Origin: Candidatus Thorarchaeota archaeon | GTDB taxonomy: Archaea; Asgardarchaeota; Thorarchaeia; Thorarchaeales; Thorarchaeaceae | Reading direction: 5' to 3' | Length of the DNA stretch: 31,821 nt | Assembly: GCA_016840855.1 (NCBI GenBank) | Contig: JAEORO010000023.1 | Span: forward strand, 1 to 31,821 | Shown here: positions 120 to 12,835 of the stretch, one piece after another | How the letters are laid out: every line of letters begins with the position of its first letter | Position numbering within the stretch: position 1 is the first letter of the stretch | Notes under the pieces: generated by a model | What the model saw: only the letters and a program-made list of their open reading frames with translations | Told to the model about the DNA's origin: nothing | Database searches by the model: none | Program-made: the position numbers and the translations under genes

Positions 120-294
120 TACTCAGAAGGTTTTTACTAGATTGTTTTTAATGTAGTATGTGAGTAATACATTCTATACGTCGGGACGCACTCGTATAAT
201 GAGAAAATTACAAACCGTTAAATACGAGGCTGGATAAATAAGATGGAAGTGTGCTCATTTGAGCAAGCCGCCGGATTACAAGTGGGGTGCATAG

Positions 295-846
295 TTGAAG
301 CTAGTAGACCTGGCCAAGGAGTCAGTCAGGGTTCTGAAAGAAAGTGGGGAGACAGGAATTAGGAGCGACGTCTTGGCTGAGAGATTAGACACTCCAAAAC
401 GACGAGTGTATGATGTTATCGCAGTTTTGAAAGCTCTGAACCAAGTTACCACAACTCGTAAGTTCGATGGGACCATTGTCAAGTGGATTGACAAAACAAA
501 GGATTTTATTCCTCGTGAAGCTCATTCAACATTGAAGATACAGCTCGAACAAGAAAGTAACCAACGGAAAGAACTCCAAGTACAAGTTGCGGAGCTAAAA
601 GAACAGGTTAGAATATCTAAAATTAAACTTCGTAGAGAAACTGCAGCAATTGAAACTTCAGACAAGACTGAATTTAACACGACTCAACTTCGCGTTCGTG
701 CTCTCTCAAGTAATGGAATTAAGAGTGTAAAGCATTCTGGTGTAGAAGTAAGAATTGAAACACATGAGGCTGGGATGGTCGTCGATCCGTCCGAGATTGA
801 AGTTGATGAGAAGAAAGCACTCATCACCAAACTTCAGCGTCTTTGA
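295..846 (+). CDS. E2F/DP-family winged-helix DNA-binding protein with coiled coil
   Basis: LAERLDTPKRRVYDVIAVLKALNQV...VKWID matches the E2F/DP recognition helix (RRxYD..NVL) and the following W-I/L motif. A heptad coiled coil follows. TTG start after SD GGGGTG. Confidence 0.8.
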   Translation: MKLVDLAKESVRVLKESGETGIRSDVLAERLDTPKRRVYDVIAVLKALNQVTTTRKFDGTIVKWIDKTKDFIPREAHSTLKIQLEQESNQRKELQVQVAELKEQVRISKIKLRRETAAIETSDKTEFNTTQLRVRALSSNGIKSVKHSGVEVRIETHEAGMVVDPSEIEVDEKKALITKLQRL

Positions 847-850
847 GTTT

Positions 851-1243
851 CTATTGTTCCTGTAATCTTATGATGACCAGACTGCCTCTTCGAACATGAA
901 CTAGCTTATCAAGCTGACTTTCGTCAGATATTATTCTCCCAATCACATTCACTTGACTGAATGTCCGTTTGTCGCCCAAATATATGTCTAAGGAATCACC
1001 TAGGGGTTGGTATGCGATATCTGCTTTCTTGACGTTATTAGTTGGTTTTGCATTTCCTTTGGATATACCCAGAGTGATTTTCATCTCTCCTTGCATGAGT
1101 GCAGTTCTGCCCTCGATGGGAAGTCTAGATTTTATTTCTTCAACAATGAGGGGTGCATATATTCTATTTATGATGCCTTTTAGAATGATATCCCCTTCAA
1201 AAACAAATTCCAACTGAATATCTGTGTCGCTCAGATCGACCAT
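851..1243 (-). CDS. Cyclophilin-like fold protein (DUF369/TM1367-like)
   Basis: 130 aa. The motifs APLIVEEIKSRLPIEG, DIAYQPLGDSLDIYLG and VNVIGRI are typical of the archaeal cyclophilin-like family. Confidence 0.7.
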   Translation of the reverse strand: MVDLSDTDIQLEFVFEGDIILKGIINRIYAPLIVEEIKSRLPIEGRTALMQGEMKITLGISKGNAKPTNNVKKADIAYQPLGDSLDIYLGDKRTFSQVNVIGRIISDESQLDKLVHVRRGSLVIIRLQEQ

Positions 1244-1326: not shown

Positions 1327-2469
1327 TTGGAGTGGATTGGGCTGGCCTCCACCAAACTCGATATTGCATTTGTAGTAGACACAACTGGTTCAATGAAGGA
1401 TGATATTACAGCTGTAAAGGACAGTCTTTTTGAGATTGTAAACCATATTACGAGTCGAACTGAAGGGTTGGAAATACGATTTGGTATTGTTTCCTATCGA
1501 GATCATCCTCCACAGGATCGAACATATGTAACACGTGTTTTTGATTTCAGTGAAAAAATAAGACGCGTGCACAAATTAATCTCTGAATTAAGACCCTCTG
1601 AAGGTGGCGACACCCCTGAAGCTGTTGCTGATGGTCTCTTTGATGCTCGTACAAAGCTCTCATGGGCAAGTGAAGCATACAAAGTCTTACTTCTAGTAGG
1701 TGATGCTCCACCTCATGGGAAACGATACAATAGCATAGGTGATGATTACTTCCCTGATGGATGCCCTATGGGATTTGATCCAATTGACGAAGTCAAGAAG
1801 CTGCGTTTAGATTTTGGGAGTACAGTGTTCATTTTTGTTTGCGGATGCAATCCCTTGGTTGAAGATTCATTTCGGAAAATCGCTACATCTGTTGAAGATG
1901 GGAAATATTATTCTCTTCTTGAAGCTCATGAGCTTCCTGAGGCAATTCTAAAAATACTCGAGGGTGTTAGTGATTTAATCGAGGCTGATCGAAAAGTTCT
2001 CTCATACTACGAGGCAAATGATGGGGCGTTTGATATGGGTGAGGCTGCCTCCGCATTGAACCTTGAGTTACGAGAGTTAAAGACCTCATTGTCACGTCTC
2101 CTTGAGCTTGGCCGAATAGCCCGTTGGCCTAAGGGACGACCATTATCGCCCTCACAAATGGGGTTGACTGTTGCCTTGGGAGAAGTTCCCAATAATATTG
2201 TTGCTGGAAAAGCATTCAATTTCAGTTTAAGAGTTAAGAATCCAAGTTCAACAGTTGTTGGGATTCGAGTGATTGCTTCTTTAGTGACTTCAGATGGTGT
2301 TTCTGAGATAACAAATGAACATCATGACATTAGCCCAAAATCAGATAGAAAGTTGGAGCTGAAATTCGTTCCGATGACCGAAACTAAAGGGAAAGCCAGT
2401 CTAAGAGTTGAAGTTTTCTATGGGTCTCGTTCAGTTGCTACTGAAATCTACACCACCCGTGTCTATTAA
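1327..2469 (+). CDS. vWA domain protein with winged helix and C-terminal Ig-like domain
   Basis: MIDAS variant DTTGS, plus YRDHPPQD, GGDTPEAV and GDAPPHG. An HTH-like segment (MGEAASALNLELRELKTSLSRLLELGRI) and a beta-rich C-terminus follow. The real start may be CTG at 1342. Confidence 0.85.
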   Translation: MEWIGLASTKLDIAFVVDTTGSMKDDITAVKDSLFEIVNHITSRTEGLEIRFGIVSYRDHPPQDRTYVTRVFDFSEKIRRVHKLISELRPSEGGDTPEAVADGLFDARTKLSWASEAYKVLLLVGDAPPHGKRYNSIGDDYFPDGCPMGFDPIDEVKKLRLDFGSTVFIFVCGCNPLVEDSFRKIATSVEDGKYYSLLEAHELPEAILKILEGVSDLIEADRKVLSYYEANDGAFDMGEAASALNLELRELKTSLSRLLELGRIARWPKGRPLSPSQMGLTVALGEVPNNIVAGKAFNFSLRVKNPSSTVVGIRVIASLVTSDGVSEITNEHHDISPKSDRKLELKFVPMTETKGKASLRVEVFYGSRSVATEIYTTRVY

Positions 2470-2482
2470 GGGAGGCTCTTTA

Positions 2483-3628
2483 TTGATCTTACGAGCAAGA
2501 CAGGGGCGACATCAACAAGGCATCTGTTTTGTTTCATCTGATATAATTGGTCAAGCCATTGAAGCATGTAAACTCACTTCAGAATCTTCTTCACTCTACG
2601 CGGATGTCAAGATTTCAGAAAAAGTTCCTGAAGGAATCATCGTCTTGGATACACGTATCTTCGAAATGCTAAACTGCGAAAATGGTGAAGAGATAGATCT
2701 TCATGTCCTAAATATCAAGCTCCCTTATTGTACTGAAATTCATCTTGATGTAATATCCAATAGAGAACTTGAGAATCATACTATCGCTCAAGCAATCTCC
2801 AAGCATATAGATGATTTTAAAGACCATTTTGAAGGGCTAATCCTTAGACAAGGACAGGAATTCTCTCTTACAGAACTAGGAGTGACATTTGTCGTCAGAT
2901 ATTTGGGTCCATCTGAACCGACAACAAATTCTGCGCGAATCAAATGGAAAAATCTTCTCAAAATTCACCTTGGCACAACGAATTTTCAACCAAGCAATCT
3001 CTGTATCATATCAGAAGTTGCTGCTGCTACTCAAATTGCTGACATCAGAATGAGTGTCGATGATGCGGGGGAGAAATTCATAACGCGACATCAAGCGATC
3101 CTAAAAACCCTTGATGCAATTCATGTAAATCTTCCAGAAAACGGCTGCGATATGCAATTTACTGGACTTGCTTTTTCTGATGAAGTAGTTTCTTTCACAA
3201 CCTTCGATTCACAAACTGGTGAGGAAAGCGAAATCTCAACACTATTCTCATCTACTCTTCTTCGCGCATTTGGAAAATGGTTTGATGCTTTACTTGATAA
3301 ATTCTCGAATAGATCTTCAAATCCTGGAGCAGCTCTGAAGTATGGGCTTGACAAAGCTCAAGCATTGAGTGAGATAAATGGTCTGCCAACAATCATTATC
3401 TTTTTTTCATCTGGTGTGTATTCAGCAGGTCAAAATCCTGTGAAGGTAACACGAATCAATCTTGGTGATAAAAACGTCAAATTCCTTACCATCTCCGTTG
3501 GAAAAGATTCCGCAACAGACATTATGGAAGCAATAGCTAAAGAAGGAAAAGGGACAACAATTCATATGCATGATGGCGAGAAGATGAAGTTGATTGTGGA
3601 TACCATCAATAGAATGTTGGTAAATTAG
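2483..3628 (+). CDS. CDC48/p97 N-domain-like + degenerate vWA protein
   Basis: N-terminal double-psi-barrel-like pattern (QGICFVSSD...GIIVLDTRIFEMLNCENGEEIDL). C-terminal vWA fold (GLAFSDEV, NPGAALKYG, IIIFFSSG, MEAIAKEGKG) with no DxSxS. Start moved from 2408 to TTG 2483, which follows SD GGAGG at 2471-2475. Confidence 0.7.
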   Translation: MILRARQGRHQQGICFVSSDIIGQAIEACKLTSESSSLYADVKISEKVPEGIIVLDTRIFEMLNCENGEEIDLHVLNIKLPYCTEIHLDVISNRELENHTIAQAISKHIDDFKDHFEGLILRQGQEFSLTELGVTFVVRYLGPSEPTTNSARIKWKNLLKIHLGTTNFQPSNLCIISEVAAATQIADIRMSVDDAGEKFITRHQAILKTLDAIHVNLPENGCDMQFTGLAFSDEVVSFTTFDSQTGEESEISTLFSSTLLRAFGKWFDALLDKFSNRSSNPGAALKYGLDKAQALSEINGLPTIIIFFSSGVYSAGQNPVKVTRINLGDKNVKFLTISVGKDSATDIMEAIAKEGKGTTIHMHDGEKMKLIVDTINRMLVN

Positions 3629-3630
3629 AG

Positions 3631-4779
3631 GTGAACCCTTTGAGTACTGATATAGCCACACATCTTCAAGCACTTTATCATAGTAGTCAAATCTCTGGGT
3701 ACATACATTCACGGTTGCCTGAAGGGTCTCTAAAGACTGGATGGATTGAACAAGGTCTTGTATCTAAAGCCCTGAAAGGAAATGTACGGGATAAGAACAA
3801 CCAAGAGTCCCTTGTAATACCTTCTGATAGATTCACTAGACTGACAAGAGATCGAAATGAACAAAATGAACTCGCATTATTTATAATCGGTCCAAAAGGA
3901 CTCGAAGCAAGAAAGTTTGTTGCGATGGTCTTTGGAACACGTGGTCACCAATCTCTGATTGCTTTCCAAACTCGCAAAATGACTCTAGATGAAATTATCC
4001 AATTCATTCATCAACATGTAATTAGAGAGAAAGTAGCGAAATCATTTGATGAGCCTAATATAGACTATGTTGAACAACTTAGATTGGATGCTTCTGAGGG
4101 GATTGTGCATGAAATGATGGTTGTCACACTCCCGAAAAAAGACGAGAAAATTACTGATTGGGTGAAAGAGGCACTCCTGAGTCAATCTTCCGAAAATATC
4201 GAAATCCATCATGGTACATCTAATATAATTCCTAAATTTGCATTGTTGATAACTCGATGGCTCACAAGTTTGGAACTCTTCAAGAGATCATCAAACGTAC
4301 TCTCGAGTTTAGTTTTCATGGGTCATGAATCTATGGACACTTGTTTCTGGGATCAAACTCAAAGAATTGCTGCCTTTACAATTTTTAAAAACAACCAGCT
4401 TTATTGGTTGTCACGAAAATACCTCGAGGCTCTTTGGATCGTTCCTGGAGAAAGTATTGAAGCAAAATCTCCATCTCGAGAAGTCACAGTTGAAACGCGT
4501 TCTGTTTCTGTTAGCCCTGCAAAACAGTCGTCCATTGAAGGACATGAAAAATCCATCCCGGTTTCTACAACACAAACAGAGAAAATTCTAGCAAGTCTTT
4601 CCAAACGCATGGATTCACTTGAATCACAACTCAAATCATCTTTGCCAACTGGTGATGCGGTTGAAACCGACCGGGGTACATTAGATGTTTTACAATCTAA
4701 ATTATCTGAAAATATCGATCGAATTGAATCACTTTCAAAGAGGTTGATTGAGCTTGAGAAGAGGTTGAAAAAAATTTGA
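3631..4779 (+). CDS. Hypothetical protein: alpha/beta N-terminal region, S/T/P-rich linker, C-terminal coiled coil
   Basis: 382-aa ORF starting 2 nt after the previous stop. Heptads in LASLSKRMDSLESQL and LSENIDRIESLSKRLIELEKRLKKI. Likely start TTG 3640 after SD GAGGTG. Confidence 0.75.
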   Translation: MNPLSTDIATHLQALYHSSQISGYIHSRLPEGSLKTGWIEQGLVSKALKGNVRDKNNQESLVIPSDRFTRLTRDRNEQNELALFIIGPKGLEARKFVAMVFGTRGHQSLIAFQTRKMTLDEIIQFIHQHVIREKVAKSFDEPNIDYVEQLRLDASEGIVHEMMVVTLPKKDEKITDWVKEALLSQSSENIEIHHGTSNIIPKFALLITRWLTSLELFKRSSNVLSSLVFMGHESMDTCFWDQTQRIAAFTIFKNNQLYWLSRKYLEALWIVPGESIEAKSPSREVTVETRSVSVSPAKQSSIEGHEKSIPVSTTQTEKILASLSKRMDSLESQLKSSLPTGDAVETDRGTLDVLQSKLSENIDRIESLSKRLIELEKRLKKI

Positions 4780-9400: not shown

Positions 9401-10723
9401 GTGCTTCTCAAAGGACAAGAGGAGGCAAAAGTCATCACCAAGAAACTAACCTTGGAGATAATTGACGGCGGCGACCTTAGAGGTTTTGCTAATGTTCATC
9501 CAAAAATTGCTAAAAAACTAGATGCTGATATTGGATCCATTTTAATATTCGAAGATCCACAGAGTGGCTTTTGGGGTGCAGCTGAGATTAGAATGAGTAA
9601 TGATGCTGCAGAGAACTGTATCATCGTTGACACACTTGTCTTAGAGGCATCACTATTAATGGAAGGCGACCAAGTAGATGTTACACTCTACGACGATGAT
9701 ATGCACGCACTTGAATATGTTGAATTCGGTCTTAAACCATTAACTGAAGATGCGAACACTGAGGATCTTGTTACCAGAGCCGCTGAAAGAGTGAAAGCAT
9801 TGGAAAACATCATTGGCGGCCGACTTGTCTATCCTGGTATGTCCTTCAATTGGCCTGACCTTGATGTGAAAGTCGAGATAATCAATACAAAACCTGAACT
9901 CGCTGGAAAAAGTTTTGCCAAGCTAGCATTTGAGGCACTTCGTGAACGTACTGGTTACCAATTCAAGACTGTTGGTATTGCATCTCCATTTAATGCTGTG
10001 CTTTGTATTGATACAAGTGGTTCAATGAAAACTACTGATGTTCCAGTACAAGATATTGCTCATGCTCGGGAAGGTTTGAAGGACCTTGCTGGTGATAGTC
10101 CAGAGGTTCAGGCTTTTCTTAATAGATTTGAGGAAGGGAAGAATGTCAGCCGAGCCGAAGCTGCTGCTATGGCGGTTCTCCTCTATCTTGCGGAGAAGGT
10201 CGGCCGTGGTTATGGAGAGAAAGTTGGTGTGATTACATTTGAGAAAGAAGTCAGTGAAATGACCTTCCTTAACTCAGACACGGGAGAAGTGCAACCATTT
10301 GTTGAATGTACAGGTCGAGAAAAAGCTCTTGGTCTGCAGATTATCAGCACTCATGTTGTGGATAAGGTAGAAGAAGGCGGAACCCTCACTGATATGGGTA
10401 CAGCTTTGAGTAAGGCTCATGAAATCATGGTGGAATTTAATGACCCTGACAAACCAACAATGCTCATCATGTTAACTGATGGGATGACAACATCCGGCCC
10501 TCCACCACTCAAAGTACTCAAAGAACGTTTTACTGATCGCAGTAAACTTGTGATTTATTCAATTGGCCTAGGTGAACGTAGCGAAATAGATGAGGAACTA
10601 ATGCTAGCAATAGCCCAATATGGTAATGGAAGTTATAGACATGTAGACAATATGCGAGATTTGCTAGAATGGTATGGCAAACTGGCTGGAGAATTTGCTG
10701 TTGTAATACGTGGGTCTGAGTGA
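9401..10723 (+). CDS. CDC48/p97/VAT N-domain + vWA (intact MIDAS) protein
   Basis: RGFANVHPKIAKKLDADIGS...IIVDTLVLEASLLMEGDQVDV and LENIIGGRLVYPG...IINTKP resemble CDC48_N and CDC48_2. vWA has DTSGS, TDMGTAL and LTDG. Confidence 0.85.
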   Translation: MLLKGQEEAKVITKKLTLEIIDGGDLRGFANVHPKIAKKLDADIGSILIFEDPQSGFWGAAEIRMSNDAAENCIIVDTLVLEASLLMEGDQVDVTLYDDDMHALEYVEFGLKPLTEDANTEDLVTRAAERVKALENIIGGRLVYPGMSFNWPDLDVKVEIINTKPELAGKSFAKLAFEALRERTGYQFKTVGIASPFNAVLCIDTSGSMKTTDVPVQDIAHAREGLKDLAGDSPEVQAFLNRFEEGKNVSRAEAAAMAVLLYLAEKVGRGYGEKVGVITFEKEVSEMTFLNSDTGEVQPFVECTGREKALGLQIISTHVVDKVEEGGTLTDMGTALSKAHEIMVEFNDPDKPTMLIMLTDGMTTSGPPPLKVLKERFTDRSKLVIYSIGLGERSEIDEELMLAIAQYGNGSYRHVDNMRDLLEWYGKLAGEFAVVIRGSE

Positions 10724-11877: not shown

Positions 11878-12076
11878 GAGTACTCCTCCGTGACGTGCTC
11901 GGTATCGTCAACTTTTTACTATATCTATCTGAAGCTTTCTATCTTAATAGCATTAGTTGGGCGAATACTGCCGCCCACTTATATCAGTTAGCACTACATA
12001 TAGAAGTAGTTCTGATGGATTACCAACCGCAGTAAATTTAGGTTGGTAAAAATCTCGACTGAATGAGGCGCCAAAG

Positions 12077-12835
12077 ATGACTAATGATCAGCATTTGCAA
12101 TGGCTTAGATTAATTCTCTTCATGACTGCAATATTACTTATCTTTCTATCAGCTCCGTTTGTAAATATCTTCGTCTTTCTCTTTATGTACATCCTTACTT
12201 GGGCGTTTGTGAAATGGGAGGGTGGTGACTCCATAGTAGAATTAGGACTTGACTTTGACAATCGGTTTTTTCCACACATTACCATAGGTGCAATCGCAGC
12301 AGCGATTTCTGCAATTTTGGTTGCAACCATTGCATTCTTCTTTGGTGGTCAACTTCGCCCTTTTAATGAGATAACTAGTGATTTGATATTTGCTGTTATT
12401 ACAAATGCAGTGCTGTTTTCGTTTTTTGAGGAATTAACACAACGTGGTTATATTTTGACAAGGATGGAGAACTTATTCGGACGTGGATTAGCTATCTTTC
12501 TTAGCTCATTGTACTTTTCGCTTCTTCACTTCAGCTGGTGGGAGCCTGCTGGTTTTAACATAGCATTAATCACCATATTTTCAATTAATATGCTCCTCGG
12601 CGGAGTTGTATTGTCTCTTAGCTACTACTGGTCTGGTCGAAGATTATGGACACCGATTTCGTTTCATTTTATGTGGAATGTACTTGCCTATATTATGTTT
12701 CCATCTTTTCCCCAAGTATCTGTGGTTCAGCCTGAAATCTTTCAAATTGAATGGGGCATAACTACAATCATAGGGTTTCTGGTGGGTCTTTCAATTCTGT
12801 GGACCTTCCTTACTTCAGAGAAAAACAGGGGATGA
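12077..12835 (+). CDS. CPBP family (CAAX/Abi) intramembrane glutamic protease
   Basis: EELTQRGY (EExxxR), FSLLH and HFMWN motifs with multiple TM helices. Confidence 0.9.
   Translation: MTNDQHLQWLRLILFMTAILLIFLSAPFVNIFVFLFMYILTWAFVKWEGGDSIVELGLDFDNRFFPHITIGAIAAAISAILVATIAFFFGGQLRPFNEITSDLIFAVITNAVLFSFFEELTQRGYILTRMENLFGRGLAIFLSSLYFSLLHFSWWEPAGFNIALITIFSINMLLGGVVLSLSYYWSGRRLWTPISFHFMWNVLAYIMFPSFPQVSVVQPEIFQIEWGITTIIGFLVGLSILWTFLTSEKNRG

Follow-up and report, generated by a model that had tools for sequence, protein, structure and literature searches.

A predicted self-pairing E2F/DP-type protein of Thorarchaeota and a conserved E2F-type box before thyA as its best candidate target

This study focused on a short gene near one end of a Thorarchaeota contig, the product of which had been described, from the DNA letters and their translations, as an archaeal relative of the transcription factors E2F and DP. 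The question raised by this locus is whether such a protein can be a true member of the E2F/DP family and, if so, with what it pairs, which DNA word it reads, and which genes it would control. The G1/S gene program of eukaryotes is driven by E2F-DP, and the origin of that program matters. The window analyzed was a whole contig of 31,821 nt (contig C99 in our numbering) from a 3.36 Mb assembly of a Candidatus Thorarchaeota archaeon, comprising 259 contigs, 92% complete and with 6% contamination. The reading favored here, and one that we regard as rather likely, is that the gene specifies a self-pairing, sequence-specific regulator of the E2F/DP family, with a box before the thymidylate synthase gene, thyA, as its best candidate target.

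The features on which the argument draws are collected in Table 1. An in-frame TAG at 292-294 lies directly 5' of the TTG with which the gene begins, while the gene as published for an identical sequence begins at an inner TTG, at position 373, and gives a protein of 157 aa without helices 1 and 2 of the E2F_TDP domain. Because the N-terminal helices are conserved among relatives and the Pfam match begins at residue 6, sequence comparisons show TTG 295, rather than 373, to be the true start. We infer that the TATA-like box is the promoter element of this gene.

Table 1. Positions, in the window, of the E2F/DP-like gene, its upstream signals, the parts of its product, and the adjoining gene.
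Feature	Position (nt)	Strand	Remarks
TATA-like box TTAAATAC	218..225	+	about 70 nt 5' of the start; conserved columns in an alignment of 29 upstream regions
Ribosome-binding-like word GGGGTG	284..289	+	6-11 nt 5' of TTG; at least 90% conserved, n = 29 aligned relatives
E2F/DP-like gene	295..846	+	183 aa, TTG start, stop included
E2F_TDP winged-helix DNA-binding domain	310..486	+	residues 6-64, Pfam
RRVYD motif (R36-D40), start of recognition helix	400..414	+	R36, R37, Y39 and D40 invariant; aligned to E2F4/E2F8/DP-2
Long helix, predicted parallel in-register coiled coil	514..639	+	residues 74-115, models
Four-stranded beta region, part of predicted dimer interface	685..792	+	residues 131-166; conserved in distant members
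C-terminal helix	808..840	+	residues 172-182, model
Convergent cyclophilin-like gene (Pfam PF04126)	851..1243	-	E 3.3e-12; conserved neighbor

The 5' leader of the gene (250-294) is itself strongly conserved among relatives, in the form GGAAGTGTGCTC..GAGC..GCCGCCGG..GGGGTGCA. Within it are a small hairpin, with a stem sequence that varies from lineage to lineage, and a stretch, CCGCC, that might base-pair with the ribosome-binding GGGGTG; RNAalifold returned four pairs (CGCC with GGTG) at -1.5 kcal/mol without real covariation, which is a weak signal. Many relatives also carry a repeated word, TTCGGAAAATCG, CGATTTTTCG or TCGATAAATCG, 20-120 nt 5' of the TATA box of the E2F-like gene. Loci with this word upstream of the gene include L015, L028 and L039, and in the window it has diverged. 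In this genome TCGATAAATCG has four intergenic copies and none within genes, and the repeated word is found at C63:1013, C63:1247, C177:1512, C177:2131, and C176:12201. A check for self-regulation found no E2F-type word in positions 1-294 of the window, and none upstream of the gene in 45 relatives.

Sequence profiles place the N-terminal part of the protein, hereafter the head, in the E2F/DP family. The Pfam family E2F_TDP (PF02319) was matched at 33.6 bits against a gathering cut-off of 25.7 (E 3.3e-8), with residues 6-64 aligned to profile positions 8-63 of 65 (56 of the 65 positions), and a six-frame scan of the genome gave a match at 35 bits. The remaining four Pfam families listed for the protein had E values of at least 0.052 and fell under their own cut-offs; no winged-helix family besides E2F_TDP was matched in Pfam at E ≤ 10, and a search of NCBIfam gave no meaningful match. 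When the single sequence was compared by phmmer with all PDB sequences, the sole match was E2F8 (4yo2_A, E 0.014). A profile built from 20 diverse family members, all of which match E2F_TDP themselves (best 2.5e-10), recovered E2F8 at 3e-12, E2F4 at 1.6e-7 and DP-2 at 0.006 from the PDB, and all other rows of that search (E ≤ 10) were coiled coils with E values of at least 0.029. Among solved structures, the relative that scores best with the head thus comes from E2F7/E2F8 (PDB 4yo2). These differ in plan from the present protein, since E2F8 carries two heads per chain and needs no partner, whereas the archaeal chain has a single head and a tail predicted to dimerize.

The residues that are invariant in the alignment of the 20 members are G21, R36, R37, Y39, D40, and W64. 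The original prediction had pointed to an N-terminal RRxYD DNA-contact motif and a terminal tryptophan, and these are present as R36-R37-V38-Y39-D40 and W64; the motif aligns with RRIYD of E2F4 and E2F8, and with RRVYD...W of DP-2. It had further taken RRVYD as the DP-type spelling. DP-2 is indeed spelled in this way, but the spelling is not diagnostic, the third residue of the motif being V in 13 of the 20 members and I in 7. The motif as a sign of the DP side was dropped, as both residues occur and the E2F chains outscore DP-2. The constancy of this base-contact motif is an argument that particular DNA sequences are read, and taken together the profile data support the view that the head is a true E2F/DP-type winged helix and not a generic one. 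The original prediction was to be given up if the best profile matches turned out to be generic archaeal winged-helix families such as TrmB, with no specific affinity for E2F_TDP; the profile searches gave the opposite outcome.

Structural comparison is less discriminating at this point. A full-length model, built with a 20-row alignment (pLDDT 85.9 for the whole model), shows a winged helix with helices at residues 3-17, 24-31 and 35-47 and strands at 51-56 and 59-64. E2F4 (1cf7_A) can be superposed on the modeled head with a Z score of 9.5 and an rmsd of 1.5 Å over 62 residues (24% identity), but the structures that matched the head best were Z-alpha domains and numerous winged helices of unrelated proteins (Z 10-11.3, 9-21% identity), so that a comparison of predicted folds cannot single out E2F among winged helices. 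Fold searches with the whole model returned generic winged helices only and were set aside. The high rank of the Z-alpha domains could be taken to indicate a factor that associates with DNA or chromatin but has no specificity for promoters, concerned, for example, with nucleoid organization or Z-DNA binding. We regard this as very improbable, because those matches are at the level of the fold only, the sequence profiles single out E2F/DP, and the invariance of RRxYD speaks for a protein that reads particular bases.

Beyond the head, the model continues with the long helix (residues 74-115) and then with four strands, at 131-136, 142-147, 152-156 and 161-166, which bears out the coiled coil and beta-rich region that had been predicted to follow the winged helix. 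A separate model of residues 68-183 (pLDDT 88.1) agrees with the full model, and the layout of the tail is common to distant members at 25-35% identity. The protein had also been proposed to act as a homodimer, and the dimer predictions are in keeping with this: ipSAE values were 0.51, 0.51 and 0.50 in three runs, against 0.00 for the best control, with at least 95% of contacts agreeing between the runs and a partner pLDDT of at least 79. The mark used for calling a dimer is one that 20 of 30 solved homodimers attain, against 1 of 23 proteins with single-chain structures; the prediction used the alignment made in this analysis, and may lean on solved E2F-DP complexes. In the modeled dimer the helices meet in register (80:80, 84:84, 91:91, 94:94, 98:98, 101:101, and 105:105), residues 123-166 contribute to the interface with strands crossing between the copies (e.g., 134 with 152), and the heads touch each other via helix 1 and helix 3. 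A homodimer also fits the single E2F-like copy per genome. On these models, the E2F-like protein probably pairs with itself. Its further description as a relative that predates the E2F/DP duplication, and so as a eukaryotic signature protein, is kept here as a conjecture about its origin.

The order of parts is that of eukaryotic E2F1-6 and DP1/2, in which an RRxYD winged helix with its wing tryptophan is followed by a coiled coil and beta strands, and as in E2F/DP the tail would be the means of dimerization, although here this is a prediction. The protein differs from the E2F-DP heterodimer in that the predicted dimer is formed by one gene product. Whether the beta region is a marked box, as the order of the domains had been taken to suggest, is another matter, and the comparisons did not bear it out. 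Neither E2F_CC-MB (PF16421) nor DP (PF08781) was matched by this protein at E ≤ 10, both were absent from the best 25 of the 142 Pfam families matched by the 20 members, and no chain of 2aze or 5tuu appeared in the family-profile search of the PDB at E ≤ 10. In a Foldseek search with the tail, E2F1 (2aze_B) was placed first of 350,542 chains, but with an E value of 2.1 and a TM score of 0.23-0.26; E2F4 (5tuu_B) was at rank 24 (E = 6.2) and DP1 (2aze_A) at rank 34, and across the marked-box chains of E2F and DP the E values were 2.1-7.4 and the TM scores 0.2-0.26. Superposition of the tail by VIA gave Z 4.2 and rmsd 11.0 Å over 80 residues for the E2F1 chain, and Z 4.1 and rmsd 9.2 Å over 84 residues for the E2F4 chain, while a wide VIA search found coiled coils only (Z ≤ 5.5) and the look-alikes of the tail in the ESM Atlas included no usable match. 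The first rank of 2aze_B is suggestive of kinship between the modeled tail and the marked box, at scores that are not significant. Unlike E2F1-6 and DP, then, this protein has a tail without a detectable sequence match or a significant fold match. A region for transactivation or for binding of pocket proteins (Rb) is absent, as the chain ends 17 residues past its last strand. Eukaryotic E2F and DP proteins are roughly 300-450 aa long, and the 183 aa of the archaeal protein leave no room for the transactivation or pocket-protein-binding region of a typical E2F.

The gene had been placed just upstream of a cluster of vWA genes. It is close to that cluster, but one gene away, the convergent cyclophilin-like gene lying between the two, 4 nt past the E2F-like stop codon. 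This arrangement is strongly kept. The cyclophilin-like gene adjoins in 44 of 47 Thorarchaeota loci and the remaining three end at a contig edge, so that all 44 loci with downstream DNA retain it, and the first vWA gene comes next in 41 of the 42 loci for which DNA is available. In 30 loci taken from the scan of the phylum the cyclophilin-like gene was adjacent in 22, comprising 13 of 13 in the window's own family and 9 of 17 in other Asgard families, where the E2F-like protein is 27-36% identical to the one described here; outside the own family it was adjacent in f16, f6, f19 and f3, and not in f9, f10, f14, f17 and f28. The vWA-domain genes themselves occupy 1327-4779 and 9401-10723, and the first also carries an Ig-like domain of the transglutaminase-C type. 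Farther along the contig, the word TGAGGCGCCAAA is found at 12064-12075, 5 nt 5' of an Rce1-like (CAAX protease family) gene starting at 12077 and 190 nt from the start side of a divergent HEAT-repeat gene.

So constant a neighborhood, and its persistence in 9 of 17 other-family loci, would suit a local, ligand-responsive regulator of the TrmB/BusR kind, with a small sensor domain, that acts on the cyclophilin-like gene and the vWA cluster, with the E2F likeness confined to the head. The general plan of TrmB and BusR, a winged helix, a long dimerizing helix and a C-terminal domain, is also that of this protein; BusR chains were the top whole-chain rows in Foldseek (E 2.3e-3, TM 0.26), and TrmB (Pfam PF01978) was touched weakly by 15 of the 20 members (best 5.2e-6), always beside E2F_TDP. 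We nevertheless hold this explanation to be quite unlikely. TrmB was not among the Pfam matches of this protein at E ≤ 10, the winged-helix matches of the family profile in the PDB were E2F8, E2F4 and DP-2 only, and no TrmB or BusR chain was found in that search at E ≤ 10. The VIA and Foldseek searches found no ligand-binding fold for the tail, and the sugar-binding domain of TrmB is far larger than this tail. Being convergent, the cyclophilin-like gene is not co-transcribed with the E2F-like gene, and the 83 nt of promoter DNA that separate the cyclophilin-like gene from the vWA genes (1244-1326), and in which TATA-like boxes are conserved, hold no conserved GC-core word across 29 loci.

The distribution of the family was also surveyed. 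This genome has one copy of the gene. Among 400 genomes of the phylum, 139 had an E2F_TDP match at E ≤ 0.001 and 136 of these exceeded the cut-off, while none of 14 control genomes had a match at E ≤ 0.001. In the window's own family 75 of 85 genomes were matched, with exactly one match each. The domain was absent from several families of the phylum (0/31, 0/22, and 0/14), and in the largest, f22, only weak matches were found, in 3 of 135 genomes. In a protein collection clustered at 90% identity, 199 of 325 candidates were relatives at E ≤ 0.001, and among the matches listed 119 of 120 relatives bore a precomputed PF02319 annotation; the near relatives are named by their sources as proteins of Thorarchaeota MAGs. 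The representatives at 50% identity were 35 proteins, all of 257 aa or less, and no longer protein with the family alignment was seen at E ≤ 0.001 among 8000 scored candidates, which is weak evidence.

The original prediction implied that the gene was new, and it is not: both the family and the identical sequence are already catalogued. In the supplementary material of Eme et al. (2023, Nature 618:992, PMC10307638), Table S3 gives 151 Asgard candidates under 'E2F/DP PF02319'; residues 28-183 of the present ORF are reproduced exactly in one row, and the string RRVYDVIAVL occurs in 20 of the 151 rows. Compared with that set the protein is of the same family and nothing in it is different in kind, the published call being merely shorter (157 aa). 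Table S4 of the same work has an 'E2F/DP homolog' cluster (arCOG02749), in which the per-lineage copy numbers, as read here, run high in Thor and low in Loki, and this fits the frequencies found in our own scan (75/85 in the own family against 3/135 in f22). The main text contains no occurrence of E2F, and a 2024 review (PMC7617429) mentions E2F homologues in some Asgard genomes. Searches of the literature on E2F in Asgard archaea, in Thorarchaeota and among archaeal winged helices turned up no binding site, partner or target.

A candidate target came from the DNA upstream of thyA. The gene is present in 63 of the 85 own-family genomes, and of the 30 best loci examined 29 had usable upstream DNA. 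Within 220 nt 5' of thyA, an E2F-type box, ATTTGGCGCG, conforming strictly to TTTSSCGC, was present in 21 of these 29 loci; the strict form was seen in 15 of the 16 loci of the window's genus, and in 6 of 11 genera. A looser word, TTSGCGC, was found in 26 of the 29, and in 24 of those 26 it read GCGCG. The background frequency of TTTSSCGC is 0.032 per 220 nt, measured over 1.10 Mb of own-family loci, and gives a binomial P of about 1e-25 by loci and 4e-7 with genera counted once, although relatives are not independent. The consensus of the box is R-TTTGGCGCG-R-W-W, the box sequence in the thyA promoter being ATTTGGCGCGG with a GCGC core, and no consistent open frame runs over it. Conservation of the thyA box is robust in this family of genomes. 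In this genome's own assembly, which is 92% complete, neither thyA nor thyX was found.

We infer that the E2F-like protein is the reader of this box. The eukaryotic E2F consensus is TTTSSCGC, which the thyA box equals, thymidylate synthase is a classic eukaryotic target of E2F, and the RRxYD residues do not vary within the protein family. An explanation that keeps the box but separates it from the protein must be considered a real, though lesser, possibility: the TTTGGCGCG box could be read by another factor or be a promoter element, the E2F-like protein then having other targets. The box is limited to the own family, since among other Asgard families that have the E2F-like gene the strict form was found in 1 of 12 loci and the looser form in 0 of 12, and Thorarchaeota encode many winged-helix proteins that might serve as its reader. 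In f22, taken as a family lacking the E2F-like gene, it was found in 0 of 20 thyA upstream regions, a result of small weight because these genomes are very AT-rich; co-occurrence of box and gene therefore speaks neither for nor against the link. The identity of the box with the eukaryotic consensus, the constancy of the base-contacting residues and the nature of the gene behind it are the points that weigh against such a separation.

Other E2F-type words in this genome are less well kept. Intergenic copies of TTTSSCGC lie 55 nt before ndk, 63 nt before pyrI, 113 nt before pyrG, and 127 nt before pyrH, where the word falls partly within the end of an upstream gene. Within the genus the word is retained in 10 of 30 loci for pyrG, in 9 of 27 for pyrH and, at this position, in 2 of 27 for pyrI; before ndk it is strict in 6 of 29 loci, and the core CCGCGA recurs. 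Before MCM, GGCGCCAAAA lies about 35 nt 5' of the TATA box; this holds for 22 of 23 loci of the genus, and in another genus all five loci have TTTGGCGC ahead of the MCM TATA box. Coding constraint may be the cause of this conservation, because the word also specifies the final W-R of Gins23, the gene upstream. The 300 nt preceding four cdc6 genes (two of them on duplicate contigs) and three ftsZ genes contained no TTTSSCGC. As a separate observation on MCM, in several relatives (G389, G334, G337, G332, G317, G331, and G319) it is contained in open frames 1214-2403 aa long, and its match is split in two around residues 347-427, which looks like the insertion of inteins.

Over the genome as a whole, 40 copies of TTTSSCGC are intergenic and 168 lie inside genes, an intergenic density only 1.3 times the genic one; for TTTGGCGC the counts are 17 and 38, respectively, with a density ratio of 2.5. 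The 9-mer GGCGCCAAA was observed 10 times against 2.09 expected, at about rank 44 among over-represented words, and the genes beside its sites are mixed (HdrA-like, PhzF-like, TatD, and unknowns). Two perfect TTTGGCGCCAAA palindromes had to be discarded as candidates, since they are one locus assembled twice, once where C44 ends and again where C200 starts. Near-identical stretches assembled twice (C44:25100-25338 with C200:1-400, and C8 with C132) sit at contig ends and at cdc6 loci and inflate some motif counts; they fit the 6% contamination of the assembly, or a mixture of strains. The most over-represented intergenic word is a different palindrome, GAACACGTGTTC, probably the site of another regulator, and AACACGTGT was observed 18 times against 1.6 expected. 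Upstream of one cdc6 gene (C8:400-660, and C132) lies TCCACTGGAAC, which we take to resemble an origin-recognition-box word, and the region C8:400-660 is probably a replication origin.

These words bear on a broader version of the favored reading, in which a self-pairing, one-gene ancestor of E2F controlled DNA-precursor genes, and perhaps replication genes, in Asgard archaea, through boxes before thyA and possibly before MCM, ndk and pyrG, and in which the tail is a precursor of the marked box. This we consider unlikely at present. If it were true, the circuit that leads from E2F to S-phase genes would predate eukaryotes.

The narrower proposal, of a self-pairing regulator with the thyA box as its best candidate target, can be stated as a mechanism. 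Two copies of the protein would join via a parallel, in-register coiled coil (about residues 74-115) and the four-stranded region, an arrangement that would bring two identical heads next to each other in the manner of E2F and DP on DNA. The dimer would read the GC-core, E2F-type word TTTSSCGC, for which the best candidate site is the R-TTTGGCGCG-R-W-W box before thyA in genomes of the own family. With the thyA box as its site, the protein would therefore regulate the supply of DNA precursors. If the self-pairing protein does bind the thyA box, a core transcription circuit of the cell cycle would be older than the nucleus.
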